Of a stretch of DNA of 64,000 nucleotides, positions 3,860 to 24,971 are shown piece by piece; positions within the stretch are counted from its first letter, which is position 1; every line of letters starts with the position of its first letter. Made by a program: the position numbers and the translations under genes. The notes below the pieces were generated by a model. That model had not been told where the DNA came from, made no database searches, and was given only the letters and a program-made list of their open reading frames with translations. The DNA comes from an uncultured Alistipes sp. (GTDB taxonomy: Bacteria; Bacillota; Clostridia; Oscillospirales; Ruminococcaceae): the NCBI GenBank assembly GCA_964401315.1, contig CAYNYB010000017.1:7596-71595 (forward strand). Direction: 5' to 3'.

Positions 3860-5752
3860 ATGAACTTAGGAAAAGTAATTGATATTGCCGTTTTCGTTGC
3901 AGGTCTCGACGAAGAATATCAGAATAATATTATTGTCGGCATAAACGAATTTGCCCGCAAAAACAATATAAACGTATCGTATTTTTCGGCTTTCGGCGGT
4001 ATGATCGACAGTAAACTCTTCGATATAGGCGAATATGCTATCTACAAGCTTGCCAATTTAAAAAAATTTGACGCGGCTATATTGATGACCAACACCATCA
4101 ACGACGATTCTGTAAAGGAAAGCATTATTAATCGGATAAAAGCTTCCGGAATTCCCGCTGTTGTTTTTGACTGCGACGAATTTCCGGAATTTCACAATAT
4201 CAGCATTAACAATACCAAAGCAATGCGCGATATGGTGCGCCATGTCATAACCGAACACGGCGCAAAAGTAATCAACTACATATCGGGTCCTATGTCAAAC
4301 CCCGAAGCGGTCGAGCGTCTGCTTGCTTTCCGTGATGTTATGGCGGAAAACGGGCTTACCGTTGAGGAAAACCGCATTTATTACGGTGAATTTCGCCGCT
4401 ACGACGGTCATGATGCTATTGAGGAATACATGAAATCGGGACTGCCGCTTCCCGATGCGTTCATATGCGCTAACGACGCTATGGCGCTGACTGCTATCAG
4501 CACTCTCGAAAAATACGGATTCTGTATCCCCCTCGACGTTATAGTGACGGGATTCGACCACACGTTCAGCGCAAGAAATTATTGTCCTGCTCTCACAACG
4601 GTTTCACGTCCGCTTTTCAAACTTGGCAGTCTGGCTTGCAACGTTATTCTCGATCTTCTCAACGGTAAAGAGCCTAAATACAATGAACTGGAAGCTTCCT
4701 GCGTTTTTACCGAAAGCTGCGGCTGCGGCTCGCTTGCGCCCGATAATTTCAGCGAATTCCGCAAGACCATGTACAATAAAAACGAATACGCAAACGATAA
4801 TGTTCATAAGCTGAACATTCTTGCAGCCAAACTTGCCGAAACTGAAAATGCAACCGAACTTTTCGGCGTTATTCAGAATTTCGTTGAAGAACTCGACTGC
4901 GAGCGTTTTTCACTCTGCATGACAAGCAACTGGCAGGAAGCTTTTGCCGATGTGGATTCCGATCTGTATGAAAGCATGACTTCGCCGTTCGTCTGGGATA
5001 AAGGTGAACTGAACAATGTTGAATATTTCCGCGGAAGCAATATGTTCCCCATTCCTCAGGAAAGCAGCGGCAACATAAATTATTTTCTTCCTCTCCATTT
5101 CCGCAATAAAACTCTCGGATATTATATCATTACAAACGGCGATTTCCCAATAAATCTGCTTTGCCATACATTCTCCATGAATATCAGCCATTCAATCGAA
5201 AATCTCCGTAAACTCACCCACATCAATAAAGCTATGGAAGAATTGAACAAAGTCTATGTTATTGATCCGCTTTGCGATATTTACAACAGAAACGGCTTTA
5301 TCAAGTTTTCCGATGAGATCTTCAAAAGCAGCGTTTCCGAAAATAAGAAAATCATGCTGACATTTATCGATATGGACGGACTGAAATATATTAACGATAA
5401 TTACGGTCACGACGAAGGAGATTTCGCGATCAGACAGTTTGCTTTTGTTATTAAGGAATGCTGCCGTCCAGGCGTTATATGCGCGCGATTCGGCGGTGAT
5501 GAATTCGTGATTTTTGATCCAAGCGCCACTGATGATTCCTCTGACTTGCTTGAAAAGCGTTTCAGCGCAAAGTTGGCAAGCATAAACAATATTATCAATA
5601 AGCCATACAGCATTTCCGCAAGTCTCGGAAGCTACGTTACGACTGTAGGCATCGGAGATACTCTTTACAAAATTGTAAAGCAGGCTGATGAACTTATGTA
5701 TGAAGTCAAAAAACAAAAAAAGAATTCCCGTGCAGGACGCGACGGAAAGTAA
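3860..5752 (+). CDS. Diguanylate cyclase with N-terminal LacI-type sugar-binding domain
   Basis: Periplasmic-binding-fold motifs (ICANDAMA, VTGFDH, ALTTVSRP); C-terminal DMDGLKYINDNYGH and intact RFGGDEF. Confidence 0.88.
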   Translation: MNLGKVIDIAVFVAGLDEEYQNNIIVGINEFARKNNINVSYFSAFGGMIDSKLFDIGEYAIYKLANLKKFDAAILMTNTINDDSVKESIINRIKASGIPAVVFDCDEFPEFHNISINNTKAMRDMVRHVITEHGAKVINYISGPMSNPEAVERLLAFRDVMAENGLTVEENRIYYGEFRRYDGHDAIEEYMKSGLPLPDAFICANDAMALTAISTLEKYGFCIPLDVIVTGFDHTFSARNYCPALTTVSRPLFKLGSLACNVILDLLNGKEPKYNELEASCVFTESCGCGSLAPDNFSEFRKTMYNKNEYANDNVHKLNILAAKLAETENATELFGVIQNFVEELDCERFSLCMTSNWQEAFADVDSDLYESMTSPFVWDKGELNNVEYFRGSNMFPIPQESSGNINYFLPLHFRNKTLGYYIITNGDFPINLLCHTFSMNISHSIENLRKLTHINKAMEELNKVYVIDPLCDIYNRNGFIKFSDEIFKSSVSENKKIMLTFIDMDGLKYINDNYGHDEGDFAIRQFAFVIKECCRPGVICARFGGDEFVIFDPSATDDSSDLLEKRFSAKLASINNIINKPYSISASLGSYVTTVGIGDTLYKIVKQADELMYEVKKQKKNSRAGRDGK

Positions 5753-5807
5753 GAACTTGTTCTTATTCATATACTCCCCTCTATTCTAAACCCTAACAAT
5801 CTTCCAA
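5751..5807. repeat. Truncated left end of a family-C palindromic element
   Basis: AGAACTTGTTCTTATTCATATACTCCCCTCTATTCTAAACCCTAACAATCTTCC aligns with 13026-13079. Confidence 0.7.
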
Positions 5808-5854
5808 GTATAAAAACCAAAAGCCGATGCTTGAATGCATCGGCTTTGCTGTAG

Positions 5855-7761: not shown

Positions 7762-7863
7762 TATAGTTGATCGATAATCATTTTGATTTCCGAACAGGTC
7801 TCTATTATGTCCGGTACGAAGTCCATCTTCGTGCAGACTAAGTTTAAAGGAGGTTCATCTTAC

Positions 7864-8361
7864 ATGAATTCAGCTAAATCTACAGTTCCTTTCAAAGGCA
7901 CTAAGGAACAGGAAGCTCAGCTTCTCGCTGTTATTGCCGAGAAGAAGGACACACAGGGTGCGCTTATGCCCATTCTGCAAAAGGCTCAGGAAATTTACGG
8001 CTACCTCCCCATTGAGGTTCAGACAATTATTTCCGACAACACAGGTATTCCGCTTGAGAAAATCTACGGCGTTGTAACTTTTTACGCTCAGTTCTCTCTC
8101 TTCCCCAAGGGCGAATACACTATTTCCGTTTGTCTCGGTACTGCCTGCTACGTTAAAGGCTCGGGCGATATTTACGACAAGCTTCAGGAAAAACTTGGAA
8201 TCGCCGGCGGCGAATGCACTCCCGACGGAAAGTTCTCTCTGGAAGCCTGCCGCTGCATAGGCGCTTGCGGTCTTGCCCCTGTTCTTACCGTCAATGAGGA
8301 CGTTTACGGACGTCTTACCGTGGACGATGTTGATAAAATCATCGAAAAGTATACTGCATAA
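7864..8361 (+). CDS. hydC: Electron-bifurcating [FeFe]-hydrogenase gamma subunit (NuoE-like)
   Basis: [2Fe-2S] motifs CLGTAC and CIGACGLAP; SD AAAGGAGG before ATG at 7864. Confidence 0.92.
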   Translation: MNSAKSTVPFKGTKEQEAQLLAVIAEKKDTQGALMPILQKAQEIYGYLPIEVQTIISDNTGIPLEKIYGVVTFYAQFSLFPKGEYTISVCLGTACYVKGSGDIYDKLQEKLGIAGGECTPDGKFSLEACRCIGACGLAPVLTVNEDVYGRLTVDDVDKIIEKYTA

Positions 8362-8388
8362 TATACATAACTGTTAGGAGGTTAACTT

Positions 8389-10287
8389 ATGAAGACTCTT
8401 GAAGAACTCAAGGCTGTCAGAGAATCGGTGGAGGGCGAAGTTGCTCTCAGAACTCATGGCAACGCTTCTTCAAAATATGAAAGACACGTTCTTGTCTGCG
8501 GCGGTACAGGCTGCACTTCTTCCGGCTCTCCCAAGATAATCGAGAAGCTTGAGGAGGAATTCGCTGCCAAGGGACTGAACGATAAAGTACAGATCGTTAA
8601 AACAGGCTGCTTCGGTCTCTGCGAAAGAGGTCCGATCATGATCGTTTATCCCGAAGGCTCATTCTACTCACGCGTTGGCGTTGAAGAAATCACACGTATT
8701 GTTGACGAACACCTCATCGGCGGCAATCCCGTTAAGGAATTCCTTTATGAAGAGACTGTTGACGGCGATAATATAAAAGCTCTCGACGATACTGCATTCT
8801 ATAAAAAACAGCATCGTGTTGCCCTCAGGAACTGCGGCGTTATTGATCCCGAAAATATCGACGAATATATCGGCAGAGACGGATATTCGGCTCTCGGCAA
8901 GGTTCTTACCGAGATGACTCCCGAGGACGTTATCCAGACTATTCTCGATTCAGGTCTCCGCGGAAGAGGCGGCGGCGGATTCCCCACAGGTATGAAGTGG
9001 AAGCTCGCCAGAAATATCGTTCCCGACGCTGACATGAAGTATGTCTGCTGCAATGCCGACGAGGGTGACCCGGGCGCATTCATGGATCGTTCCGTTCTCG
9101 AAGGCGATCCGCACGTTGTTCTCGAAGCTATGACTATCGCAGGTTACGCTATCGGCGCAAAGCAGGGTTACATCTACGTTCGTGCCGAGTATCCTATCGC
9201 TGTTGAGCGTCTTAATATCGCTATCAAGCAGGCTCGTGAAGCAGGTATGCTCGGTAAGGATATCTTTGGCACAGGTTTCGATTTCGATATTGATCTCCGT
9301 CTCGGTGCAGGAGCTTTCGTTTGCGGCGAAGAAACTGCTCTTATGACTTCAATCGAAGGCAACCGCGGCGAACCCAGACCAAGACCTCCTTTCCCTGCTG
9401 AAAAAGGTCTGTTCCAGAAGCCCACTATCCTTAACAACGTTGAAACATACGCTAATATTCCCCAGATCATTCTCAACGGCGCTGAATGGTTCGCTTCCAT
9501 GGGTACCGAAAAGTCCAAGGGTACTAAGGTATTCGCTCTCGGCGGTAAGATCAAGAACACAGGTCTTGTTGAAATTCCTATGGGTACTACTCTCCGCGAA
9601 GTTATCGAAGAGATCGGCGGCGGAATCCCCAACGGCAAGAAGTTCAAGGCTGCTCAGACAGGCGGTCCTTCAGGCGGCTGTATTCCTACAGAGCATTTCG
9701 ATATCCCGATCGACTACGATAACCTTATCGGCATCGGCTCAATGATGGGTTCGGGCGGTCTTATCGTTATGGACGAGGACAACTGTATGGTTGACATCGC
9801 TAAGTTCTTCCTCGAATTTACAGTTGACGAGTCCTGCGGTAAATGTACTCCCTGCCGTATCGGTACAAAGAGAATGCACGAGATTCTTGACAAGATCACA
9901 AAGGGTAAGGGTACTCTCGAAGATATTGATAAGCTTGAAGAACTTTGCTATCACATCAAGTCCAATTCACTCTGCGGTCTTGGTCAGACAGCTCCCAACC
10001 CTGTTCTCTCCACACTTCGTTACTTCCGTGACGAATACATAGCTCACGTTGTCGACAAGAAGTGTCCCGCAGGCGTTTGTAAGGATCTTCTCAGCTTTGA
10101 GATCGATAAGGATAAGTGCTTCGGCTGCTCAATGTGCGCTAAACAATGTCCTGCTGAGGCTATTTCCGTTACAGACTACACTGCACCCGGAAAGAAGAAG
10201 CCTGCATACACGATCGACAAGGATAAGTGCGTAAAGTGCGGAGCTTGTATCGCTACATGTAAGTTCAAGGCAATCAGCAAGAAGTAA
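8389..10287 (+). CDS. hydB: Electron-bifurcating [FeFe]-hydrogenase beta subunit (NuoF-like)
   Basis: LRGRGGGGFPTG, CNADEGDPG, GAFVCGEETAL, ESCGKCTPCRIG; N-terminal thioredoxin-like 2Fe-2S; two C-terminal 4Fe-4S motifs. Confidence 0.95.
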   Translation: MKTLEELKAVRESVEGEVALRTHGNASSKYERHVLVCGGTGCTSSGSPKIIEKLEEEFAAKGLNDKVQIVKTGCFGLCERGPIMIVYPEGSFYSRVGVEEITRIVDEHLIGGNPVKEFLYEETVDGDNIKALDDTAFYKKQHRVALRNCGVIDPENIDEYIGRDGYSALGKVLTEMTPEDVIQTILDSGLRGRGGGGFPTGMKWKLARNIVPDADMKYVCCNADEGDPGAFMDRSVLEGDPHVVLEAMTIAGYAIGAKQGYIYVRAEYPIAVERLNIAIKQAREAGMLGKDIFGTGFDFDIDLRLGAGAFVCGEETALMTSIEGNRGEPRPRPPFPAEKGLFQKPTILNNVETYANIPQIILNGAEWFASMGTEKSKGTKVFALGGKIKNTGLVEIPMGTTLREVIEEIGGGIPNGKKFKAAQTGGPSGGCIPTEHFDIPIDYDNLIGIGSMMGSGGLIVMDEDNCMVDIAKFFLEFTVDESCGKCTPCRIGTKRMHEILDKITKGKGTLEDIDKLEELCYHIKSNSLCGLGQTAPNPVLSTLRYFRDEYIAHVVDKKCPAGVCKDLLSFEIDKDKCFGCSMCAKQCPAEAISVTDYTAPGKKKPAYTIDKDKCVKCGACIATCKFKAISKK

Positions 10288-10302
10288 GCGGAGGAATTAT
10301 TA

Positions 10303-12045
10303 ATGGAAAATATAACAGTTAAAGTTAATGGTGCTGAAATCTCCGTACCCAAGGGCACTACCGTCCTTGAAGCTGCCCATATGGCAGGTTTTGAGATTCC
10401 TACACTTTGCTATATGAAAGAAATTAACGAGATCGGCGCTTGCCGTATCTGCGTTACAGAGGTAAACGAAGGAAGAGGTTTCCGTCTTGTTGCAGGCTGC
10501 GTATATCCCTGCTCCAATAACATGGAGATTCTCACGTCTTCTCCCAAGGTGATCGAATCACGCAAGAGAACTCTTGAGCTTATCCTCTCCACTCACGACA
10601 GAAAGTGCCTCTCCTGCGTAAGAAGCGGTAACTGCGAACTTCAGAAACTCTGCAAGGATTATGGTATTGACGACGCTTCCAAGTACGATGGCGCTAAGAA
10701 TGAGTATGAGGTTGATACGACCGCCGCTCATATGTACCGCGACAATAACAAGTGTATCCTTTGCCGCCGCTGTGTAGCAGTATGCTCAAAGACTCAGGGC
10801 ATCGGCGTTATCGGCGCAAATGAAAGAGGTTTCAAGACATTTATCGGCAGCGCGTTTGATATGGGTCTCGGCGAGACAAGCTGCGTTTCCTGCGGTCAGT
10901 GTATCGCTGTATGTCCTGTTGGCGCTATTGCTGAAAAGGATTACACAAAGCCCGTTCTCGAGGCTATCGCTGATCCCGAAAAGGTTGTTCTTGTTCAGAC
11001 TGCTCCCGCAGTACGCGCCGCTCTCGGCGAGTGCTTCGGTATGCCTATCGGCACAAATGCAGAAGGCAAAATGGTTGCCGCTCTCAGAAAGCTCGGATTC
11101 GATAAGGTATTCGATACTGATTTTGCCGCTGATCTTACGATCATGGAAGAAGCTAACGAATTCCTTGACAGACTCCAGAATGGCGGAAAGCTTCCTCTTA
11201 TCACATCATGCTCACCCGGTTGGGTTAAGTTCTGCGAGCATTATTTCCCCGATATGACTGAGAATCTCTCGTCATGCAAGTCTCCTCAGCAGATGTTCGG
11301 CGCAACTGCAAAGACTTACTACGCAGAGAAAATGGGCATTGATCCTAAGAATATCGTAATGGTTTCTATCATGCCTTGTACTGCTAAGAAGTTCGAGATC
11401 GGCAGAGACGATCAGAGTGCAGCAGGCGTTCCCGATGTGGATTACGCTCTCACAACTCGTGAACTCGGCAGAATGATCGAGCGTGCAGGCATCAATTTCC
11501 TCGGTCTTGAAGATGAAAAGTTCGACGATCCGCTCGGAATCTCAACAGGCGCAGGCGTTATATTCGGCGCAACAGGCGGCGTTATGGAGGCTGCTCTCCG
11601 TACTGCTGTTTATACTCTCACCGGCGAGAATCCTATCGACTTCCCCGAAGTTCGCGGCACAGAGGGAATTAAGGAAGCTGAGTATGATGTTGCAGGCACA
11701 AAGGTAAAGGTTGCTGTTGTAAGCGGTCTTGCAAATGCAAGAGAGCTTCTTGAGAAGGTTCAGAATGGCGAAGCTGATTATCAGTTCATTGAGATCATGG
11801 GTTGTCCCGGTGGCTGCGTAAACGGCGGCGGTCAGCCTCAGGTTGCAATGGGTATCAGAAACTTTGTTGATATCAGAGAAAAGAGAGCTAAGGTTCTTTA
11901 CGATATCGACGCTGCAATGCCTATCCGACAGTCTCACGAAAATCCCGCTATCAAGGAGATCTACAACACATTCTTTGAGAAACCCGGCAGTCATAAGGCT
12001 CATGAGGTTCTTCACACAACTTACGTTAAGAGAAGCATCAACTAA
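10303..12045 (+). CDS. hydA: [FeFe]-hydrogenase catalytic subunit (group A3 type)
   Basis: H-cluster motifs TSCSPGW, MPCTAKKFE and EIMGCPGGCVNGGG; N-terminal Fe-S clusters. Confidence 0.96.
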   Translation: MENITVKVNGAEISVPKGTTVLEAAHMAGFEIPTLCYMKEINEIGACRICVTEVNEGRGFRLVAGCVYPCSNNMEILTSSPKVIESRKRTLELILSTHDRKCLSCVRSGNCELQKLCKDYGIDDASKYDGAKNEYEVDTTAAHMYRDNNKCILCRRCVAVCSKTQGIGVIGANERGFKTFIGSAFDMGLGETSCVSCGQCIAVCPVGAIAEKDYTKPVLEAIADPEKVVLVQTAPAVRAALGECFGMPIGTNAEGKMVAALRKLGFDKVFDTDFAADLTIMEEANEFLDRLQNGGKLPLITSCSPGWVKFCEHYFPDMTENLSSCKSPQQMFGATAKTYYAEKMGIDPKNIVMVSIMPCTAKKFEIGRDDQSAAGVPDVDYALTTRELGRMIERAGINFLGLEDEKFDDPLGISTGAGVIFGATGGVMEAALRTAVYTLTGENPIDFPEVRGTEGIKEAEYDVAGTKVKVAVVSGLANARELLEKVQNGEADYQFIEIMGCPGGCVNGGGQPQVAMGIRNFVDIREKRAKVLYDIDAAMPIRQSHENPAIKEIYNTFFEKPGSHKAHEVLHTTYVKRSIN

Positions 12046-12343: not shown

Positions 12344-12451
12344 AAAAACAGATATCTCATCTGCTTAAATATTATATCACAAAAAAACAGATTTGTCAAG
12401 TTTTTTTTAAAAAAATTCAAGGCGTATCCAAAAATACGCCTTGAAATAATT

Positions 12452-13003
12452 TTAACCGAAATATCTTTTGAGAAGTCCCTCAAAAGCCTTGCCGTGACGA
12501 GCCTCATCCTTAGCCATTTCATGAACAGTATCATGAATAGCGTCAAGGTTAAGTTCCTTAGCTCTCTTCGCAAGATCAAGCTTGCCCTGTGTTGCACCGT
12601 GTTCAGCGGCAACTCTTTTCTCAAGATTCTCCTTTGTGGAAGAAGAAACAACATCGCCGAGAAGCTCAGCAAATTTTGCAGCGTGTTCAGCCTCTTCATA
12701 AGCAGCTTTCTCCCAGTAGAGACCGATTTCAGGATAGCCCTCTCTGTGAGCAACTCTTGCCATCGCAAGATACATACCTACTTCTGTGCATTCGCCAGAG
12801 AAATTAGCTTTCAGACCTTCAATGATCTGCTCATCTGTAACTGCCTTTGCAATTCCAACTTCATGCTCGCAAGCGAAAACAAGATTTCCCTCTTCCTTTT
12901 TCTCAATGAACTTAGATCCGGGAACTCCGCACTGAGGGCATTTTTCTGGGGCGGAATCGCCCTCATGAACATAGCCGCAAACGGGACATACATATTTAGC
13001 CAT
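12452..13003 (-). CDS. Reverse rubrerythrin (N-terminal rubredoxin plus ferritin-like diiron domain)
   Basis: CPVCGY...CPQC rubredoxin knuckles; GECTE, EEAEH and DEARH diiron motifs; SD GGAGG. Confidence 0.93.
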
Positions 13004-13043
13004 AATAATTACCTCCATTTTATATAGAACAAGTTTTTATATG

Positions 13044-13206
13044 TATACTCTCCTCTATTCTAAACCCGAATAATCTTCCGAGCATAAATTACGTCAGTCG
13101 TCGTCGCAAATCCTCGACGGGCGACATCCCGTCTTGCGGTTTGCTTCTATACTGACATGATTTCTGCTCGAAATCTTTATTCGATTTTAGAATAAAGGCG
13201 AGTATA
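13044..13206. mobile_element. Family-C palindromic miniature element (~163-bp core)
   Basis: Imperfect TIRs TATACTCTCCTCTATTCTAAA / TTTAGAATAAAGGCGAGTATA; nested internal stems; same ends recur at 5771 and 18534-18775. Confidence 0.7.
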
Positions 13207-13247
13207 TAAACTTATTCTGAATAAAGCCTTTCGACTTTTTCAACTAA

Positions 13248-13511
13248 TTAGACACCATGCTTTACTCTGTCGTGTTCTTCAGCGCGTTTACCGTCGTTGA
13301 AGCGGTCAAGAGTACCCACCAGATAACCTGTAATACGTCTAATGCGGTCAAAGGGTACGTTTGAAAATTCATATTTCAAATCAACAAAATCTCCGTCCAA
13401 AGTCACGGTCATTTCATTGATTATCCTGTCGCTGTATTTTTCCTCGCCGTACTTGATGTACGCGTCGATTTCCTGCTGCGGAAGAGTTCCGCCTATAACG
13501 TTTACTTTCAC
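13248..13511 (-). CDS. Stand-alone 87-aa protein ending in an NrdD-type glycyl-radical motif
   Basis: C-terminus RIRRITGYLVGTLDRFNDGKRAEEHDRVKH; GTG start with SD CAGGAGG. Confidence 0.82.
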   Translation of the reverse strand: MKVNVIGGTLPQQEIDAYIKYGEEKYSDRIINEMTVTLDGDFVDLKYEFSNVPFDRIRRITGYLVGTLDRFNDGKRAEEHDRVKHGV

Positions 13512-13640
13512 CTTACAGACCTCCTGAATAAATTCACACAAAACCAAGCCAATATGCACTTCACATATGACTTAACTATATTTGCAGAGCCTGCGCAGGA
13601 CTGCCTCAGAATCAAAAATACCGTCATTAAAAATCGATAC

Positions 13641-13702
13641 TTGACATTTGACTAAATATATTGTATCATAATAAGAGAAAAAAATCTGTTGCAATTGCAA
13701 CA
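13641..13702 (+). promoter_or_regulatory. SigA promoter plus 16-bp perfect palindrome upstream of the Crp/Fnr gene
   Basis: TTGACA(13641)-N17-TATCAT(13664); TGTTGCAATTGCAACA at 13687-13702, just before the SD. Confidence 0.65.
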
Positions 13703-13715
13703 CAAGGAGAAATAT

Positions 13716-14378
13716 ATGTTAGTCAAGAATAACACATTGTTCAAAGGCGTCTCACCTGAAGACTGTACACGCATGATAGAATGTTTCAACGCCGAAACAC
13801 GGAAATTCCGCGCGGGCAGCTGTATCGCCGATTTCTCGGTACAGCGTGGAAAAATCGGTGTCATATTGAGCGGAAACGCCGAGATTGTGCGCTATGACAT
13901 AAACGGCGTTAGGAGCATAATCGAAACTTTAGGCGCGCAGGATATTTTCGGTGATTTTTTCACCTATTCCTCTTCCAAAAAAAGTACTGTTGAAATAATT
14001 GCGGAAGCGGACTGCGAAATACTTTTCGTACTCCGTTCCGAACTTATGAAGCGATGTGCGAAAGCCTGCCAATGCCATTCGCAGGTAGTTGAAAATATGC
14101 TCGATCTTATGACAGAAAAAGCTGTTTCACTCAGCGAACGCATAGAAGTTCTTAGCCAGCGTACTATTGAAGATAAGCTACTTAGTTTTTTGCAGATCAC
14201 CGAAAATAATACCGCCGCAGGAAAATCGCCGCAGATACCTTTTTCAACAACGGCACTTTCGGATTATCTCTGCGTAAACCGAAGCGCACTCCAGCGTGAA
14301 ATGGCTAAGCTGAAAAAATCAGGTGTTCTCACAATTTCAAAAAGAAAATTCAAACTCAACCGCAATCAAGAAATCTGA
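13716..14378 (+). CDS. Crp/Fnr-family transcriptional regulator with Cys-rich segment
   Basis: cNMP-binding-fold N-terminus (GDIFG-like QDIFG); HTH LSDYLCVNRSALQRE; CAKACQCH segment. Confidence 0.9.
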   Translation: MLVKNNTLFKGVSPEDCTRMIECFNAETRKFRAGSCIADFSVQRGKIGVILSGNAEIVRYDINGVRSIIETLGAQDIFGDFFTYSSSKKSTVEIIAEADCEILFVLRSELMKRCAKACQCHSQVVENMLDLMTEKAVSLSERIEVLSQRTIEDKLLSFLQITENNTAAGKSPQIPFSTTALSDYLCVNRSALQREMAKLKKSGVLTISKRKFKLNRNQEI

Positions 14379-15695: not shown

Positions 15696-16862
15696 TTATG
15701 ACTGATAAGCGGAAGTGATTCCAAAATACTCTTCAAGTGTAAGATAAGGATCGCCTGCTGCAATTGCAGCATCTTGAATTCGCTGAGCATTCTCCTTACC
15801 CACATAGCGAATATGCCACGGCTCATATTTATAGCCTGTAACGCTCTGCTTACCCTGCGGATAGCGGATTATAAAGCCGTATTCCACACAATGCTCTTCG
15901 AGCCAGATAGCCTCGGGAGTTCCGATAAATGCGTCGCTGATCTCGTTTACATCTATCGCAAGACCTGTCTGATGCTCGGAATGTCCCGGACGCGCCGAAA
16001 AAGTATCAGCTGTAGCCTGTCCGTTTACGGCAACGTAATTATTGTAGATAGATTCCTGCGTTTCATAAGAGCGAAATCCCGATGAGATGTAAATATTTAA
16101 ACCATCATTGGCAGCTCCGCTCGCAAGTTCCTGAAATGCCGAATAAGTGTCGCTTGTAAGTCCGCCCGGATTATAAGAAGACGGCAAAGCGTAAGTTTTG
16201 TTGGCGATGAGGATTCCGTCAATGTATGTTACTCCGTCTACTTGCTGAACGCCTTCAGATTTTTTAACAGTAACATTAACTTCAGCGCCAAGCGACGGAT
16301 TATCAGCCGACGTCACCTTGATAACGCACGTACCCTCGCCAACACCGGTAATATTTCCGAAGGAATCAACGGTAGCAACAGCGGTATTCGAACTTGTCCA
16401 GACTTCTTTGATATTTTCCGAAACAACGGGATACTGCTTAGTCTGACCAACGCTTATCTCGGCTGAATAATAGCTGAGTGTAATGCCGCTTACTGTTGCA
16501 GAGCCGCCTGACGGAGTGGTTGCACCTCCATTTGCAGTCGGCGCTTTCGTGGTCGGAGTATTAGGATTCACCTTTGAATTATTTGCAGCCGAAGTAATTC
16601 CGGTACGCGTAACAGCCACAAATCCCGCTCCTGTAGTTGTTGTACCCGCTGCATCTGTCACGTCTTCCGCAGAAGAAGTTGTAATATCGGAAGTTTGAAC
16701 GTCGTTTTCATTATCTGTAGTATTTTCAACAATACTGCTCGAAATGCTGAGTTCCGATGATTCGTTTTGAGTAGCAGGAACTTCGTTGCCGCATGACGCC
16801 ATACCCATAAGGCAGACTAATGAAGCGATAAACGCCGTAATACGTGTAAATTTTCTATTCAT
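15696..16862 (-). CDS. Lipoprotein D,D-carboxypeptidase (VanY/M15B) with Ser/Thr linker and Ig-like domain
   Basis: Lipobox MASC; WTSSNTAVATV Ig-like domain; SGFRS, SARPGHSEHQTGLAID and EPWH motifs. Confidence 0.9.
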   Translation of the reverse strand: MNRKFTRITAFIASLVCLMGMASCGNEVPATQNESSELSISSSIVENTTDNENDVQTSDITTSSAEDVTDAAGTTTTGAGFVAVTRTGITSAANNSKVNPNTPTTKAPTANGGATTPSGGSATVSGITLSYYSAEISVGQTKQYPVVSENIKEVWTSSNTAVATVDSFGNITGVGEGTCVIKVTSADNPSLGAEVNVTVKKSEGVQQVDGVTYIDGILIANKTYALPSSYNPGGLTSDTYSAFQELASGAANDGLNIYISSGFRSYETQESIYNNYVAVNGQATADTFSARPGHSEHQTGLAIDVNEISDAFIGTPEAIWLEEHCVEYGFIIRYPQGKQSVTGYKYEPWHIRYVGKENAQRIQDAAIAAGDPYLTLEEYFGITSAYQS

Positions 16863-17004
16863 TTCGTCATCTCCCAAGCAGCGTTTATTTCCAAGCTGCA
16901 ATTTTAAATTTTCTTAACACACCTTATTATATCACACTATTTCCCAAATGTAAAGCTTTTTTTGAAAAAAGTCAGTAGCAGACAAGAAGATAGAGACGGT
17001 ATAA

Positions 17005-17724
17005 TTACATGGGCAGCTTACTACAATTATATCTGTCAACACTGTCAAAAATATTTTCTTCAGATCGTTGACGCATAGAATAAACATCATCGCAGCCAAA
17101 TATTATATGATCAACCATCGTAATCCCAAGCAATTTAAGTGCATTTTTGATTTTCAGCGTTGAAGATATATCGGCTGTCGACGGAGTACATACGCCCATA
17201 GGGTGATTATGTGCGATAAACACATATGAAGCTTCGTTTTTCATTGCAAAATTGACAATTTCTCTACATGATGACGCAACTTGAGATACTGAACCGCTGT
17301 TTAAGATTTTAGAGTCAATAATTTTGAAATTCCTGGAAACCGCCGTCACAACGATTATTTCAACGTGTTCTGATTTAAGATAAGCGGAGAAATATTTTTC
17401 AGCATTCTCAACAGTATCAAGCAGCAACATCTGGCATTTCTCCAGTTCGCAAATTCGCTTTAGCTGCGGAATAAGCGTCAGAAGAAGTGCGCTCTGCATA
17501 TTGATGCCACAGTCTTTCACAAGAAACCTCGAATCGGAATCCATAGCCATTTGAGGAGTTCCGTAAATCTCAGTAAGCTTCGCTACAGCATTTTCAATAT
17601 TTTTACTTTGCTCGGAATATGAAAGGATAAATGTAAATTTCTCAGTATCTGTAAGAGAATCAAACCCTTGCTCCAAATATTTTTTTCTTACAATATCAGA
17701 TATTTTTTGAATTTTATTGGTCAT
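17005..17724 (-). CDS. RadC-like JAB-domain protein (JAB metal motif intact)
   Basis: FIAHNHPMGVCTPSTADI matches HNHPxGxxxPSxxD; divergent N-terminus. Confidence 0.75.
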   Translation of the reverse strand: MTNKIQKISDIVRKKYLEQGFDSLTDTEKFTFILSYSEQSKNIENAVAKLTEIYGTPQMAMDSDSRFLVKDCGINMQSALLLTLIPQLKRICELEKCQMLLLDTVENAEKYFSAYLKSEHVEIIVVTAVSRNFKIIDSKILNSGSVSQVASSCREIVNFAMKNEASYVFIAHNHPMGVCTPSTADISSTLKIKNALKLLGITMVDHIIFGCDDVYSMRQRSEENIFDSVDRYNCSKLPM

Positions 17725-17774
17725 GGTATTTTATAGCATTTTAAAATTTTATTTATAGGTTCTTATAGCATTTG

Positions 17775-18446
17775 TTAAAATGAAAAAGCTCCGCACTTCC
17801 TTAGTGAAATAGTATTTCTGCCAACGCAAACTATGGAATCTATAAGACGAATTCCGATACACGTGAATTTTTCAGCAAACAAACGTGTAATAGCAAAATC
17901 GCTTTTATCCGGCAAAAAACTGTCCGGAGCATGATTTATGCCAAGACTGATTTTATTGCAGTCGGATTTTAAAAGAATTTCAGCAATACGGCGCAATTCA
18001 TTTTCATCTGTAAGAGCTATTGATTTTGAAAAGCTTGTTTGACCGCGTATTTCGTAGTTTCCGGCAATATTCAGCAGCAGACAAAGATCAGATGTAGCGT
18101 CGTTAAAATAATCGAGAAAATATTCGGATAATTCGCTTTCAGATAATGTTATAGGGCTGAGCGTACTGCTTGAACACATATCAGAAACAAGTTTCAAGAA
18201 CATTGCAGACGATTTTCCCATGCCGTCTACAGCGGCGATTTCCTCCTCTGAAGCTGCAAATATTCCATTGAAGCTTTTGAATTTGTTTATAAGATTATGA
18301 GCGATCTCATTCGTATTTCTTCGCGGGATAACGTAATACAGCAGATATTCCAGCAGTTCGTGATTACAGAATGAATCCGCGCCTTGTTTCAGAAGGCGAT
18401 TTCTCATTCTTTCCCTATGACCATAGTGAAGGGAATCATTATCCAT
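17775..18446 (-). CDS. RadC-like protein (RadC N-terminus intact, JAB motif degenerate)
   Basis: HYGHRERMRNR...HELLEYLLYYVIPRRNTNEIAH and HhH VDGMGKSSA; C-terminal GINHAPDSFLPDKSD lacks the first His; SD GGGAGG. Confidence 0.75.
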   Translation of the reverse strand: MDNDSLHYGHRERMRNRLLKQGADSFCNHELLEYLLYYVIPRRNTNEIAHNLINKFKSFNGIFAASEEEIAAVDGMGKSSAMFLKLVSDMCSSSTLSPITLSESELSEYFLDYFNDATSDLCLLLNIAGNYEIRGQTSFSKSIALTDENELRRIAEILLKSDCNKISLGINHAPDSFLPDKSDFAITRLFAEKFTCIGIRLIDSIVCVGRNTISLRKCGAFSF

Positions 18447-18533
18447 ATTCAGCCTCCCAATAATATTTATTACTATTATTATATCACATATTTCTAAAAA
18501 TTTCAAGTCGCAATTCAAATTTTTTTGAGAAAA

Positions 18534-18775
18534 TATACTCGACTTTATTCTAAAACACGCCAAAGATTTCTATTTGGATAATTGGTAGATTTTAGAACTT
18601 GTGTTCATAGGATTTGTGCATGGATTTTCGAGCATAATTTTACCGAAAGCAAGGCGAAAAAACGAAATCATACTGCCGTATGGTGAACTTTTTCAACGCA
18701 GCTATCAGTAAAATTTGCCGAAAAGACACGTTCAATAGCCTATGAACACAAGTTCTTAGAATAGAGTCGAGTATA
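18534..18775. mobile_element. Family-C element (internally shortened) interrupted by MITE B1
   Basis: Left TATACTCGACTTTATTCTAAAA; removing B1 and one TTA restores right TTTTAGAATAGAGTCGAGTATA (21/22 inverted match). Confidence 0.75.
18595..18755. mobile_element. MITE-like element B1 (161 bp), TTA direct repeats
   Basis: TIRs GAACTTGTGTTCATAGG / CCTATGAACACAAGTTC; TTA at 18592-94 and 18756-58; close copy at 41550-41710 (inverted). Confidence 0.85.
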
Positions 18776-18807
18776 TAAACAAGGCTGCCTATCGGCAGCC
18801 CCGCAAT

Positions 18808-20226
18808 TCAAGAATTTATAAGTTCGCTAAAAGTTTCAATGTAAACGCCTGCCGAAACCGACCAACTGTTATCGCATTTCATAGCACGCTTAACAAGAGA
18901 CTGCCACTTCTGAGGATCGTCGTAATCTCTTTTCGCACGGCGAACAGCATCAAGCATATCGTCGGCATTAAAAGTTTTAAATGAATATCCATTACCGTTC
19001 ACGCCGCCGTTATCGCGCACTGTATCACGTAATCCGCCTGTTTCGCGAACTATAGGCGCAGTTCCATAACGCATAGCTATCATCTGAGCAAGACCGCAAG
19101 GTTCACTCTGACTCGGCATGAGGAACATATCCGAACCAGCATATATCCTGTGAGCAAGCTCGGGAACAAATCCCGTTATCACCGAAACTTTATCAGGGTA
19201 TCTCCGCGACATCTCGATAAAGAAATCCTCATAGATCTTTTCGCCGCTTCCAAGCACGGCAACCTTGATTCCGCTGTTTATAATTTCTTCGAATACACAG
19301 CGAATAAGATCAATACCTTTATGCTTGACAAACCGCGTAACTATACCCAAAAGCGGTTCTCCGCCGTCCGCAAAACCAAGTTCGCTCAAAAGTTCCGACT
19401 TGCATTTCGCCTTACCCGACATATCGCTTTCGGAAAAATGCCAGGCGATATACGGGTCTTTCTCGGGATCGTAGAGATCGGTGTCAATACCGTTGAGAAT
19501 TCCATTTAATTTATACTGTTTATCTGCAAGAATCCGATCGAGACCGCAGGCATACCACGGATCGAGAATTTCCAGAGCATACGAGGGCGAAACGGTTATT
19601 ATCCTGTCAGCCGTCTCAATCGCGCCTTTAAGCATATTTATATAGCCGTCATATTCGAGAATTCCCGAATTATAGGCAGGAATCCCCATCAGCTCATTAA
19701 GAACTTCCTTGCCGTATCTTCCCTGATATTCGATATTATGAATAGTCATTGCGATCTTCAGCTTATCGTAACCTTCAAGATATCTGTAATAAACATGGAA
19801 ATAAACGGGGATAAGCGCCGTCTGCCAATCATTGCAGCTTATAATATCCGGCTTGAAATCGATAAATTTCAGCATTTCGAGAACAGCCCTGCCAAAAAAT
19901 ACAAACCTCTCGCAGTCGTCGTAAAATCCATAAAGACCGTCTCTGTTATAATAATATTCATTATCTATAAAATAATATGTAACATTATTTTTTTCCGCCG
20001 TATAAATTCCGCAGTACTGCTTACGCCATGAAACATCGACCGTGAGATTCGCGATAAACTCCATTTCCTCACGCAGTTTCGGATCGATAGCCTTATAAAG
20101 CGGAATTACGACCGCGCAATTATGTCCCTTTTCGCTTATAGCTTTCGGCAAAGAACCCACTACGTCGGCAAGACCGCCGGAGGCTGCGTAAGGAACAGCC
20201 TCGCTGGCAGCAAAAAGTATATTCAT
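18808..20226 (-). CDS. glgA: Glycogen synthase
   Basis: SGGLADVVGSLP, NDWQT and PSQSEPCGLAQMIAMRYG motifs. Confidence 0.96.
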   Translation of the reverse strand: MNILFAASEAVPYAASGGLADVVGSLPKAISEKGHNCAVVIPLYKAIDPKLREEMEFIANLTVDVSWRKQYCGIYTAEKNNVTYYFIDNEYYYNRDGLYGFYDDCERFVFFGRAVLEMLKFIDFKPDIISCNDWQTALIPVYFHVYYRYLEGYDKLKIAMTIHNIEYQGRYGKEVLNELMGIPAYNSGILEYDGYINMLKGAIETADRIITVSPSYALEILDPWYACGLDRILADKQYKLNGILNGIDTDLYDPEKDPYIAWHFSESDMSGKAKCKSELLSELGFADGGEPLLGIVTRFVKHKGIDLIRCVFEEIINSGIKVAVLGSGEKIYEDFFIEMSRRYPDKVSVITGFVPELAHRIYAGSDMFLMPSQSEPCGLAQMIAMRYGTAPIVRETGGLRDTVRDNGGVNGNGYSFKTFNADDMLDAVRRAKRDYDDPQKWQSLVKRAMKCDNSWSVSAGVYIETFSELINS

Positions 20227-20241
20227 ATGTGCATCTATCCT

Positions 20242-21366
20242 CTATATTTTGCCGTTTTTGTTGATATAGAGCGGATAAGTCTCTGAACCCGTCAAAGATT
20301 TTTCATCGCTGATCTCAACATTTTTATCTGTGATAACGGAAGAGATGTTGCAGCCGCTTCCGATCTTCGTACCCTGCATGATAACGGAATCCTTTACAAC
20401 GGTATCCTTTCCGATCTTAACGCCGCGGAAAATAATCGAATTTTCAACAGTACCTTCGATAACGCAGCCATCAGCAATAAGCGAATTCTTTATATTTGAT
20501 TCCAGACCGTATTTCGCTGGACCGTTATCTCCGACTTTAGTATACACGGGCATATCTATCTTGAATAACGCGTTTCTCTTTTCGGCATCAAGAAGCATTT
20601 TATTAGCTGCAAAATAATTCTCAACGCTGTCTATGCGTACAAAGAAATCCTTATGCTCGTAGCCCATTATCTTATACTCGCTGTTTTTATTCTGAAGAAT
20701 TTCTCTTGTAAAGCTGTAGAGGTTTCTGCTTGCGGCATCGTCAACCACCTGACGTAGAAAATCCTTGCTGATTATCATCATTTCAAGCCACTGATTGCAT
20801 TCTCCCGAAATTTTCGGAGCAACAAGAACATCGCTTACGGTATTATCCTCGTTGAACTGAAGAACAGTAGTACCCGCATTCTTCTCGCTGTCATAATAAC
20901 CCTTGCTGTATATGAGAGTAATATCAGCCTCAGTCTCCATATGCTGACGGAGAACGGGGTTAAAATCAATAGTTGAAACAACATCGCAGTTTGAAAGTAT
21001 CACATACTGCGCCTTTGAATGCTCAACAAAACTCCAGACATTATTGAGGGCGTCCAGTCTGCCCTTGTAAATTCCGCCGGTCTGGCTGTACGGCGGAAGA
21101 AGATGAAGACCGCCCTTTTTACGGGCAAGATCCCAGTCTCTTCCCGAACCGAGATGATCCAGTAAAGAGCCATAATTCGACTTTGTAATAACGCCGACTT
21201 CGGAAACGCCGGAATTAACGAAATTGGATAGTGGGAAATCGATAAGTCTGTATCTGCCGCCGAAAGGAATAGAACCCATAGTTCTCTGCTTCGTAAGCTC
21301 GCTTACATAAGAATCATGCATACTTGCAAAAATCAGACCCAAAACATTATAATTAACACTGCTCAT
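20242..21366 (-). CDS. glgD: Glucose-1-phosphate adenylyltransferase, GlgD subunit
   Basis: IPFGGRYRLIDF with degenerate N-terminal GG motif; follows glgC. Confidence 0.93.
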   Translation of the reverse strand: MSSVNYNVLGLIFASMHDSYVSELTKQRTMGSIPFGGRYRLIDFPLSNFVNSGVSEVGVITKSNYGSLLDHLGSGRDWDLARKKGGLHLLPPYSQTGGIYKGRLDALNNVWSFVEHSKAQYVILSNCDVVSTIDFNPVLRQHMETEADITLIYSKGYYDSEKNAGTTVLQFNEDNTVSDVLVAPKISGECNQWLEMMIISKDFLRQVVDDAASRNLYSFTREILQNKNSEYKIMGYEHKDFFVRIDSVENYFAANKMLLDAEKRNALFKIDMPVYTKVGDNGPAKYGLESNIKNSLIADGCVIEGTVENSIIFRGVKIGKDTVVKDSVIMQGTKIGSGCNISSVITDKNVEISDEKSLTGSETYPLYINKNGKI

Positions 21367-21380
21367 TGTGATACCTCCGC

Positions 21381-22607
21381 TCAGATATTTTCGCCGATGA
21401 TCTGCTTTGGATCAACGGATTTGCATTCCGATACTGTTACGTTATGTCCCACTACCGCAATACCCCAATCGTCTCTGTTTTCAACCATTTCGGGGCTTTT
21501 TCCGATATGAGCGCCGCTTTCTATAACGCAGTCGCTGCCTACAATGGCGTATTCAACAACAGCGCCCGACTTGATAACCGTACCGGGCATAATTATACTG
21601 TAATTTACAGTCGCGCCCTCTTCAACAGTAACGCCTGCAAAAAGAACTGAGAAATCCACAGAACCGTCAACGGAACTTCCCTCGGCGATCATGGAATTTT
21701 CAACATGAGCATTCTCGCCCATATACTGCGGCGGCATATAGCTGCTTCTGGAGTATATCTTCCAGCTCTTGTCATAAAGATCGAGAGGCACACTGGGACT
21801 GAGGAGATCCATATTTGCTTCCCAAAGCGAATCGAGAGTACCGACGTCTTTCCAATAGCCCTCGAATTCATAAGCAAAAAGACGCTGCTTATCGCGGAGC
21901 ATGGAAGTGATGATATCTTTTCCGAAATCCTTCGACCAGCTTTCGCCGCGCTCGCGCTTTGCATTGGCATCATTTTCATTTTCAATAAGGTACTTTTCCA
22001 GCTTTTTCCAACTGAAAACATATATACCCATAGAAGCGAGCGTTGATTTAGGCTCCTTGGGCTTCTCGACGAAATCAACTACCTTGTTGTTTTCGTCGCA
22101 TATCATAATTCCAAAACGTGAAGCTTCGGCAAGAGGAACATCGATAACGGAAATTGTGCAGTCGGCATCGTTGGCGATATGGAAGTCGACCATTTTCGAG
22201 TAATCCATTTTATAGATGTGATCTCCGCCGAGTACAACAACGTAATCCGGATCGTAACGCTTGATGAAATTCATATTCTGGTAGATCGCGTTTGCAGTTC
22301 CCTCGTACCATGAAGCGCCTGCCTGAGATTCATAAGGCGGAAGAACGTGAACTCCGCCGTTCATTTTATCGAGATCCCACGGCTGACCGTTGCCGATGTA
22401 TTCGTTAAGGACGAGCGGCTGATACTGAGTAAGAACGCCTACGGTGTCGATACCTGAATTTGTGCAGTTTGAGAGAGGGAAATCAATAAGTCTGTATTTT
22501 CCGCCGTATGGAACAGCAGGTTTAGCCACGTTTTTTGTAAGAGCGTACAGTCTGCTTCCCTGACCGCCTGCAAGGAGCATCGCTACAACTTTTTTCTTGG
22601 TGTACAT
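21381..22607 (-). CDS. glgC: Glucose-1-phosphate adenylyltransferase, GlgC subunit
   Basis: [32 protein letters not shown] and YWKDVGT. Confidence 0.96.
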
Positions 22608-22715
22608 AAATATTCCTCCTGATATTTATATTAATAGATATATGTTTGAATTAGGGGAACATGGCGTATCTTTGGAATTTCTCCAAAGATCGCACATTTT
22701 CCCAATAATTTATCA

Positions 22716-24710: not shown

Positions 24711-24971
24711 TAAAACAGCCCCCTTTGCCGTAATACCGCGCGGCTGCATAAAATCATGGCGCAGTATCACTTATAGCAGTATTACCTATAGTTATTTTAC
24801 CAGAATATGCAAAAATATTCAAGCTTTTTTGCAAAAATGCACAAAAATTCAGACAATACCATAAATATTAGTTGTAATTTTTGTGCATTTTACCATAATA
24901 CAAGCTATAACTTTACGATCTATTTGTACACACAAACATAATGAATCCGGTTTCGTTGCATAAATTAAAAA

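Follow-up and report, generated by a model that had tools for sequence, protein, structure and literature searches.

Oxygen cuts glycyl radical enzymes at the radical glycine, and the anaerobic ribonucleotide reductase NrdD is no exception (PMC12288474, PMC13450708); for one such enzyme, pyruvate formate-lyase (PFL), a spare part is provided by the autonomous glycyl radical cofactors GrcA/YfiD from Escherichia coli and Y06I from phage T4. According to a review from June 2026, spare parts are known for formate lyases only, and the question was left open for NrdD (PMC13450708); the same statement was made in a 2021 paper on YfiD (PMC8683613). The searchable literature, with subscription-only papers outside its scope, contains no description of an NrdD spare part or of a split class III ribonucleotide reductase (RNR). 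The current study deals with a gene for an 87-residue protein (hereafter the small gene and the small protein) in a 64-kb stretch of contig CAYNYB010000017.1, the whole of which is called the window. A first-pass annotation had proposed this protein as the NrdD counterpart of the GrcA/YfiD spare part, a proposal that is now supported by operons of the order nrdD, small gene, nrdG in relatives, by pairs of loops that agree in all 32 residues, and by NrdD partners that lack the radical glycine (Gly-less NrdDs). Sequence comparison makes it highly probable that the family of small proteins represents a trans-acting radical loop of NrdD that is activated by NrdG.

Direct reading of the window sequence gave a GTG start codon (13509-13511) and 87 codons plus a stop for the small gene, which is preceded by a ribosome binding site (RBS; Table 1), as are its homologues. 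The open reading frame (ORF) of 103 amino acids (aa) in a mechanically generated list was rejected; all relatives start at MK(V/I)NV, and the length of 87 aa is therefore correct. The C-terminal 34 residues, ...PFDRIRRITGYLVGTLDRFNDGKRAEEHDRVKHGV, contain the radical glycine G62 (codon 13326-13328). Residues 54-85 match positions 533-562 of the 562 positions of the Pfam family NRDD (PF13597) with an expectation value (E) of 1.2e-7 and 31.3 bits, i.e., above the gathering cutoff of 26.2 bits, and positions 711-744 of 746 of the NCBIfam model PRK07111 (NrdD) are matched with an E of 1.3e-11. The match to Prevotella copri NrdD (8p23) covers its residues 707-738 (E of 8e-8), which include the radical glycine Gly711 (PMC11226230). 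A profile of the small-protein family finds 8p23 with an E of 4e-13 and also T4 NrdD (1h78), and the loop and tail of NrdD align with the last 32 to 46 residues of the small protein. Invariant in an alignment of 89 sequences are R58, R59, T61, G62, Y63, L64, N72, K75, E78, and R82. Scans of Pfam and NCBIfam at an E of ≤10 returned NrdD models only and no Gly_radical or GrcA model. The Pfam, NCBIfam, and PDB sequence matches thus bear out the C-terminal loop of the NrdD type that the first-pass annotation had described, and the unlinked small gene of the window lineage is a confirmed observation whose loop homology lies far beyond chance.

With respect to the defining traits of NrdD, the R-x-x-G-Y loop and the conserved tail are present in the small protein. 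The alpha/beta barrel with the finger loop of the thiyl radical Cys is absent (87 aa and zero cysteines), and since there is no Cys in the sequence, the structural Zn site in front of the loop is missing, too; the only alignment with the Zn ribbon is that of a hairpin to its second half. The earlier statement that neither Zn-binding Cys pairs nor a barrel occur consequently holds. The small protein scores 31 to 44 bits, compared with cutoffs of 326 to 764 bits for the whole-protein NCBIfam equivalogs. As for the traits of GrcA/YfiD, the PFL-type RVSGY loop (IPR011140, PF01228) is absent, and coexistence with a full-length parent enzyme and its activase was found, the parent being NrdD and not PFL.

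The family is large. A word-indexed search returned 7999 proteins, the best 120 of which are 87 to 129 aa long (most of them 87 to 90) and 71 to 100% identical; those with a named source among these 120 are almost all labeled Ruminococcus. An exhaustive search of representatives yielded at least 596 clusters at 50% identity (E of ≤1e-10), and the best 150 clusters are all small proteins (52 to 236 aa), most of which match the query over the greater part of its length, N-terminal part included. At least 585 loci were confirmed in a scan of one genome per species. The best 80 of these species loci mostly carry the labels Ruminococcus, Oscillospiraceae, Clostridia/Clostridiales, and Christensenellales, and linkage of the small gene to nrdD is lacking in 79 of the 80. 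Pfam, NCBIfam, and PHROG contain no family-specific model, the family being matched by models of the NrdD C terminus alone, and several sources annotate its members as "hypothetical" or as fragment-like "anaerobic ribonucleoside-triphosphate reductase". The exact window protein is present on 20 metagenome contigs, and a metatranscriptome contig carries a homologue of the small gene.

Linked loci were found in several relatives. Locus L029 comprises genes for a full-length NrdD of 779 aa and a small protein of 94 aa, followed by nrdG, nrdR, and a Crp-type gene; in L186, a full-length NrdD of 842 aa and a small protein of 87 aa precede nrdG and nrdR. In both genomes the loop of NrdD and that of the small protein are identical in 32/32 aa (88/99 and 88/96 positions at the DNA level), and the residues common to both copies differ between the genomes, e.g., AEEHD in L029 versus AEVND in L186. 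This combination of complete identity and genome-specific residues would be expected if both loops have to fit the same barrel and the same activase, and on the basis of these sequences the within-genome identity is read as co-evolution for one barrel and one activase.

Other relatives exhibit the radical glycine in the small protein only. The order nrdD, small gene, nrdG, nrdR is found in a common human gut organism (L099-L105), whose Gly-less NrdD of the L099 type (835 aa) ends in ...CGRKEHESDIKCSERLKRFVTHGECASLESF (stop) and is followed by a family member of 89 aa with its own RBS. Gly-less nrdD genes succeeded by the small gene and nrdG also occur in L174, L176, and L185, and in these three loci as in L099 the glycine resides exclusively in the small protein. 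A search of PLSDB added Subdoligranulum variabile (L017:2607-5665; OY725842.1), whose Gly-less NrdD of 759 aa ends in ...YPGTFTYCGCE and is succeeded by a 53-aa loop protein without an N-terminal domain and by nrdG, which indicates that this domain is not strictly needed for a detached loop; the NrdD of Monoglobus found in the same database is contiguous. Wherever a Gly-less nrdD adjoins nrdG, the small gene stands beside them in every inspected case, and the same survey of loci revealed full-length nrdD genes with nrdG directly downstream and no small gene in L106, L163, and L172.

Gly-less NrdDs are common: among the 120 NrdDs closest to that of L029, 24 are Gly-less, and among the 120 closest to that of L177, 96 are. 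They stop just past the ...ERI(K/R)R strand, i.e., at the point where oxygen would cut the radical-bearing enzyme, and have kept the catalytic TTCCQ and GCRTR motifs. Since the Gly-less relatives of the L029 enzyme end in several unrelated tails, the loop must have been lost repeatedly. A large clade of "orphan" Gly-less NrdDs of 745 to 760 aa (L177:3546-5807 of JGI Ga0256405_10000125 and P0433-P0525) has tails such as ...ERIKRIKVS. Neither the small gene nor nrdG was found within about 5 kb of the L177 nrdD, and the loop gene of these genomes presumably sits elsewhere. Class III RNR is inactive without a glycyl radical, and the Gly-less settings hence indicate that the small protein can supply the radical in trans.

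Phages carry the same arrangement. Among viral contigs of IMG/VR, 502 matches to the small-protein family were obtained, and in 21 of the 80 best viral loci a Gly-less, cone-less nrdD (encoding about 600 to 650 aa), the small gene, and nrdG follow each other directly. All 21 phage nrdD loci of this set are Gly-less and accompanied by the small gene, and none has its own loop. The phage contigs with all three genes (L231-L260) are about 9 to 63 kb long. The commonest neighbors in the viral loci are a MazG-like pyrophosphatase, the exonuclease phrog_3953, and a phrog_4291 protein. The 59 other viral loci lack an nrdD within 6 kb of the small gene, and some of them may be host fragments.

Whether the small protein is a spare or the sole loop in the lineage of the window depends on the resident nrdD. 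Neither nrdD nor nrdG is present in the 64 kb of the window (tblastn; Pfam on large ORFs), no Ruminococcus nrdD was found in PLSDB, and none of the matches listed in three homologue searches is an NrdD labeled as originating from a Ruminococcus isolate. The relative used was Ruminococcus flavefaciens ATCC 19208 (locus L026), for which public isolate reads (run X1) provide 3.9 Mb of contigs that contain 100% of the sampled words of locus L026. Its small protein is 75% identical to that of the window, and the neighboring genes and the promoter are alike. A contig of 87,207 bp is collinear with the L177 nrdD (record positions 18780-20573) and continues into the PCCGYTGIIG region of the Zn ribbon. 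On the small-gene locus of ATCC 19208 itself, run X1 gave a 53-kb contig at 100% identity and the 87-kb contig at 20650-20756, which corresponds to the loop half, at 81% DNA identity; both contigs also map to the window gene (83% and 88%).

The upstream end of the loop match on the 87-kb contig reads S-N-N-V-A-F-D-R-I-R after reverse complementation, and the 76 nucleotides (nt) that separate NHPVDRD from the loop are an exact fit for PCCGYTGIIG-DxCPxC-GRKEHSNNV. The nrdD gene ends in ...FDRIRRITGYLVGT...DRVKHNV (stop), also given as ...GRKEHSNNVAFDRIRRITGYLVGT...DRVKHNV (stop), and the terminal N-V-stop is followed after 10 nt by ATG AAT ATC AG..., which gives MNIRIAG, a typical NrdG start. 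All eight listed DNA differences between the two loops of ATCC 19208 are synonymous changes at third positions. With the nrdD locus L117, which encodes the 787-aa type, run X1 aligned over 38 nt only. On the 87-kb contig, strain ATCC 19208 hence has a full-length contiguous nrdD that carries a loop of its own and precedes nrdG, and the small gene is on another contig, so that the lineage does not have a split enzyme.

The organism of the window itself is represented by metagenomes only. In two of them, the window-like contig has depths of 42.2 and 31.4, and a 4472-bp nrdD contig has depths of 31 and 23.9, which corresponds to ratios of 0.73 and 0.76. The latter contig is collinear with nrdD, and its terminal loop is 86% identical at the DNA level to positions 13257-13343 of the window; it is suggestive, but not proof, that this full-length nrdD belongs to the window organism. 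The full-length nrdD with a Gly loop and the nrdG that the first-pass annotation had wished to see in the genome were thus found in the nearest relative with an isolate run, and its reservation that the enzyme might be a split one, with an nrdD lacking the loop, does not apply to the lineage given the full-length NrdD of ATCC 19208, with which the metagenome contig agrees. A resident NrdD without a loop, as expected for a split class III RNR, was observed in L099, L174, L176, L185, L017, and the phage loci and not in the Ruminococcus clade.

In the genome of the window the small protein probably serves as a spare part for oxygen-damaged NrdD, as judged by the analogy with GrcA/YfiD. NrdG would abstract a hydrogen from Gly62 of the small protein, the activated loop would enter the barrel of NrdD and displace the C-terminal loop of the enzyme, and the inserted loop would generate the thiyl radical for ribonucleotide reduction. 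NrdD cut by oxygen could then be re-armed by the synthesis of an 87-residue peptide instead of an enzyme of about 780 residues. The small gene would be expressed together with the neighboring rubrerythrin from a promoter with a Crp/Fnr-type site at about -41.5, an arrangement that suggests redox- or oxygen-responsive control. Because NrdD keeps its own loop in the Ruminococcus lineage, the small protein represents a second, exchangeable loop there; in other Clostridia and in gut phages, where the NrdD loop was lost, a class III RNR in two pieces would now depend on the family member as its obligate radical subunit. The role of a spare part that the first-pass annotation had assigned thus fits the lineages with a full-length NrdD but not those in which the small protein is an obligate subunit. 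From the GrcA/YfiD precedent and the comparative data we infer activation by NrdG, docking, repair, and regulation alike.

Several points weigh against the role of a spare part in the window organism. The nrdD status of this organism is deduced from a relative, with 75% identity between the two small proteins, and from metagenome depth. A divergent Gly-less NrdD paralogue below the 80% DNA threshold could exist in Ruminococcus, and the small protein could serve this paralogue instead. A second isolate, FD-1 (run X46), was uninformative, as it gave no second contig and no match on the window gene, which is a non-detection and not an absence. The oxygen-damage context that the first-pass annotation had drawn from the rubrerythrin and the Crp regulator is valid for the Ruminococcus clade but not elsewhere, rubrerythrin being adjacent in 8 and Crp in 7 of the 79 species, so that the oxidative stress neighbors are limited to one clade. 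Furthermore, unlike YfiD, the small protein has a predicted fold in its N-terminal domain and predicted disorder in its loop half, so that docking may differ. After oxygen cleavage, NrdD still has the Zn ribbon and the ERIRRI strand, also found in the incoming protein.

Four other explanations have to be weighed against the spare part. It is unlikely that the NrdD of the window organism is loop-less and that the small protein is the sole radical polypeptide of a two-piece RNR with scattered genes. That architecture exists in the family (L099, L174, L176, L185, S. variabile L017, and 21 phage loci), the large L177 clade documents orphan Gly-less nrdD genes without a nearby small gene or nrdG, and the absence of nrdD from the window likewise speaks for it, but ATCC 19208, which is alike in gene order and promoter, has a full-length nrdD with loop and nrdG, and in two metagenomes the depth of a full-length nrdD contig follows that of the window-like organism. 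Quite unlikely, too, is a protein that repairs nothing and tunes the RNR as a competing substrate of NrdG, a radical reservoir, or an inhibitor acting on NrdD or NrdG. Such a regulator or buffer would fit the full NrdG recognition loop, the folded N-terminal domain that could bind NrdG or NrdD, and an expression that appears to be regulated apart from nrdDG in Ruminococcus. In the Gly-less lineages and phages, however, the small protein must be catalytically productive, and the within-genome identity of the loops is predicted by interchangeability, whereas a decoy needs only the residues that NrdG recognizes.

That the loop serves a different partner, be it the barrel of another glycyl radical enzyme or another protein, is very improbable. 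The small gene does stand apart from nrdD in 78 of 79 species, but its loop is specifically of the NrdD type without any Gly_radical/PFL match, the linked gene is always nrdD or nrdG when there is linkage, and the loop tracks that of the resident NrdD residue by residue. A nonfunctional leftover from the duplication of part of nrdD, or an artifact of gene calling, as might be suspected from the shortness of the gene and the "hypothetical" or fragment-like labels in several sources, can hardly be reconciled with a full-length gene that has its own RBS, an invariant radical motif kept in hundreds of species, a conserved promoter, and a homologue on a metatranscriptome contig, and it is the least credible of the alternatives.

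The N-terminal domain sets the small protein apart from a mere loop. An AlphaFold2 model based on the 89-sequence alignment has strands at residues 2-6, 31-39, and 42-49 and a helix at 12-25, with a predicted local distance difference test (pLDDT) score of about 90 for residues 1-50 and of about 53 for the loop half; the low value is what a segment that becomes ordered only inside the barrel would show. E14 and Y18 of the domain are nearly invariant in the alignment. A Foldseek search of the domain against the PDB found nothing significant (best E of 0.14, with generic YfiA/HPF-like beta-alpha-beta folds), and phmmer found no match of the domain among 120 NrdDs. The insertion of 60 to 70 residues in long NrdDs (821 to 851 aa) was rejected as a relative and is an unrelated internal helical repeat. 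A profile search pairs the hairpin (profile positions 36-49) with the latter half of the Zn ribbon in the P. copri and T4 NrdDs, and the domain may be a metal-free remodeling of this ribbon. The N-terminal part of about 55 aa that had been called unrelated to NrdD is accordingly a separate domain, but its hairpin aligns with half of the Zn ribbon. The domain probably serves to dock the loop on NrdD or NrdG or to hold it in position there.

Some members of the family are longer. P0141, P0149, P0169, and P0238 (182 to 236 aa) have extra N- or C-terminal regions, the end of P0149 (…HLATIRAWARKD) resembles a phage replication-organizer motif, and P0169 has an N-terminal 4Fe-4S ferredoxin-like membrane segment; all four could be fusions or gene-calling artifacts. 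Many NrdDs, Gly-less NrdDs, and small proteins of one subfamily, e.g., at L029:4699-4983, at L099:8548-8817, and at the C termini of P0271-P0390, end in short Cys-rich tails (…ECNCD, …CSCAEF, …SVCC, …CGCE, and …YECCFN) that could be metal or redox relay sites. The small proteins of Ruminococcus are without such tails.

Table 1. Features of the window around the small gene (positions refer to the 64-kb stretch)
Feature	Position	Strand	Remarks
NrdD-type loop protein gene (small gene)	13248..13511	minus	87 aa, GTG start, stop 13248-13250
RBS AGGAGG	13520..13525	minus	8 nt 5' of GTG; direct sequence reading
N-terminal domain, residues 1-50	13362..13511	minus	Cys-free; predicted beta-alpha-beta-beta
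Glycyl radical loop module, residues 54-87	13251..13352	minus	Pfam, NCBIfam, and PDB matches
Extended -10 element TGATACAAT	13660..13668	minus	conserved in window, L007, and L020-L026
Perfect palindrome TGTTGCAATTGCAACA (TGTTG-N6-CAACA)	13687..13702	none	center about 41.5 bp upstream of predicted start
Crp/Fnr-family regulator, 220 aa from ATG 13716	13716..14378	plus	Pfam cNMP_binding
Reverse rubrerythrin	12452..13018	minus	Pfam RUBY_RBDX and Rubrerythrin; rubredoxin-like N-terminal and ferritin-like domains
HydABC-type [FeFe] hydrogenase operon	7783-12045	plus	2Fe-2S thioredoxin-like, Nuo51-like, and HydA subunits

In the Ruminococcus clade (window, L007, and L019-L026), the gene order is UppP, the Crp gene on the opposite strand, the small gene, and rubrerythrin. 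Transcription of the small gene is predicted to start near 13653 (Table 1), and a consensus promoter scan gave an overlapping TTGCAA-18-TATGAT. The palindrome upstream is kept in 9 of 10 loci of the clade; its perfect form matches once in the 64 kb, and six matches with ≤1 mismatch compare with 1.3 expected. A site centered at about -41.5 corresponds to the classical class II geometry of Crp/Fnr proteins, which makes the palindrome a candidate operator of the divergent Crp/Fnr-type regulator. No conserved NrdR-box-like motif was seen upstream of the Ruminococcus genes.

The regulator, which the first-pass annotation had described as divergent and Cys-rich, was recovered as a cNMP-binding protein with eight cysteines. 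Its ORF was mechanically assigned to 13689-14378 (+) with the start codon TTG 13689, but the real start is probably ATG 13716, which is favored by the RBS AAGGAG, by the 220-aa calls in contigs of the same species, and by the alignment. With this start the palindrome lies in the 5' leader of the regulator, so that autoregulation is possible. The cysteines C17 and C23 and the motif RCxxACxCH are kept across the clade, and the regulator may sense redox.

The co-oriented reverse rubrerythrin was found as described. No terminator-like site was detected by the scan between the small gene and rubrerythrin, one lies 3' of rubrerythrin (12416-12445, minus strand), and the spacer is about 50 to 65 nt long in relatives; the two genes are probably co-transcribed. 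In two gut metatranscriptomes (X68 and X69), conserved rubrerythrin segments reach contig depths from thousands to more than 20,000, which places such rubrerythrins among the most expressed genes of those communities. Between the two genes, the window has a palindromic insertion of about 157 bp (13047-13205) that is missing from L001, L003, and L006 of the same species (spacer of about 65 bp). Its depth is 8 to 10 times that of its flanks in two metagenomes, many contigs break at 13205-13208, and partial copies are located at 5752-5814, 18533-18555, and 18756-18780 of the window; it looks like a mobile repeat of the MITE (miniature inverted-repeat transposable element) or REP (repetitive extragenic palindromic) type.

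A tRNA-Leu gene lies between rubrerythrin and the hydrogenase operon, whose product is probably electron bifurcating. The adjoining hydrogenase is real, but its inclusion in an oxygen repair module does not stand; it was rejected as a functional neighbor, being missing from that position in L007-L011 and in other species, and the adjacency is incidental and peculiar to the window species. On the other side, the region 15696-24770 encodes a protein with a VanY domain and contains two RadC-like genes as well as a glycogen cluster (glgA, two glgC/D-like genes, and glgB). The hydrogenase operon and these genes represent ordinary content of a Ruminococcus chromosome.

A broader interpretation, in our judgment as likely as not, is that the class III RNR of many gut Clostridia and their phages is a two-component enzyme with a disposable radical subunit. 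The family would then record an evolutionary path from a duplicated spare loop (L029, L186, and Ruminococcus) via the repeated loss of the enzyme's own loop to an obligate subunit (L099, the L177 clade, and S. variabile). Phage small subunits might re-arm or take over the NrdD of the host. If true, this would be the first system of spare parts beyond the formate lyases and also the first class III RNR in split form, with the adaptive logic that 87 residues rather than about 780 are replaced per oxygen hit. The family is an abundant and concrete spare part candidate for the essential DNA precursor enzyme of strict anaerobes, and natural controls are built in, i.e., genomes with both loops, genomes with the detached loop only, and phage versions. 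The small protein may partly explain how Clostridia of the rumen and gut survive transient oxygen. These observations are also relevant for genome annotation, since thousands of ORFs called "hypothetical" or fragment-like "NrdD" represent real genes and NrdD genes that appear to be truncated are probably functional halves.

Overall, the small protein shares with GrcA/YfiD that it is a stand-alone small copy of the glycyl radical loop at the C terminus of a large enzyme, that it coexists with the intact enzyme and its activase, that phage-encoded versions occur, and that it has kept the strand directly preceding the loop, a strand still present in the cleaved enzyme as well. The yfiD gene of E. 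coli is activated by FNR, and the window gene sits behind a predicted Crp/Fnr-type site. In contrast to GrcA/YfiD, the loop RRITGYLVGT is of the NrdD type and not of the PFL type (RVSGY), the presumed activase is NrdG instead of PFL-AE, and many lineages have deleted the loop of the enzyme itself, for which nothing alike has been reported for GrcA. Moreover, YfiD consists of a disordered N terminus and a structured C-terminal domain (PMC8683613), whereas the prediction here is a folded N-terminal half and a disordered loop half. Compared with NrdD (P. copri 8p23 and T4 1h78), the small protein is without the alpha/beta barrel, the ATP-cone, and the Cys4 Zn site, and a metal-free beta-alpha-beta-beta domain stands where NrdD has its Zn ribbon. 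A catalytic RNR chain divided into two polypeptides has a formal precedent in the split class II enzyme NrdJa/NrdJb of Pseudomonas aeruginosa with its barrel polypeptide and small C-terminal polypeptide (PMC9669993), but NrdJb comprises Zn-finger and IscU-like domains and no radical site and thus differs from the small-protein family in class and chemistry.

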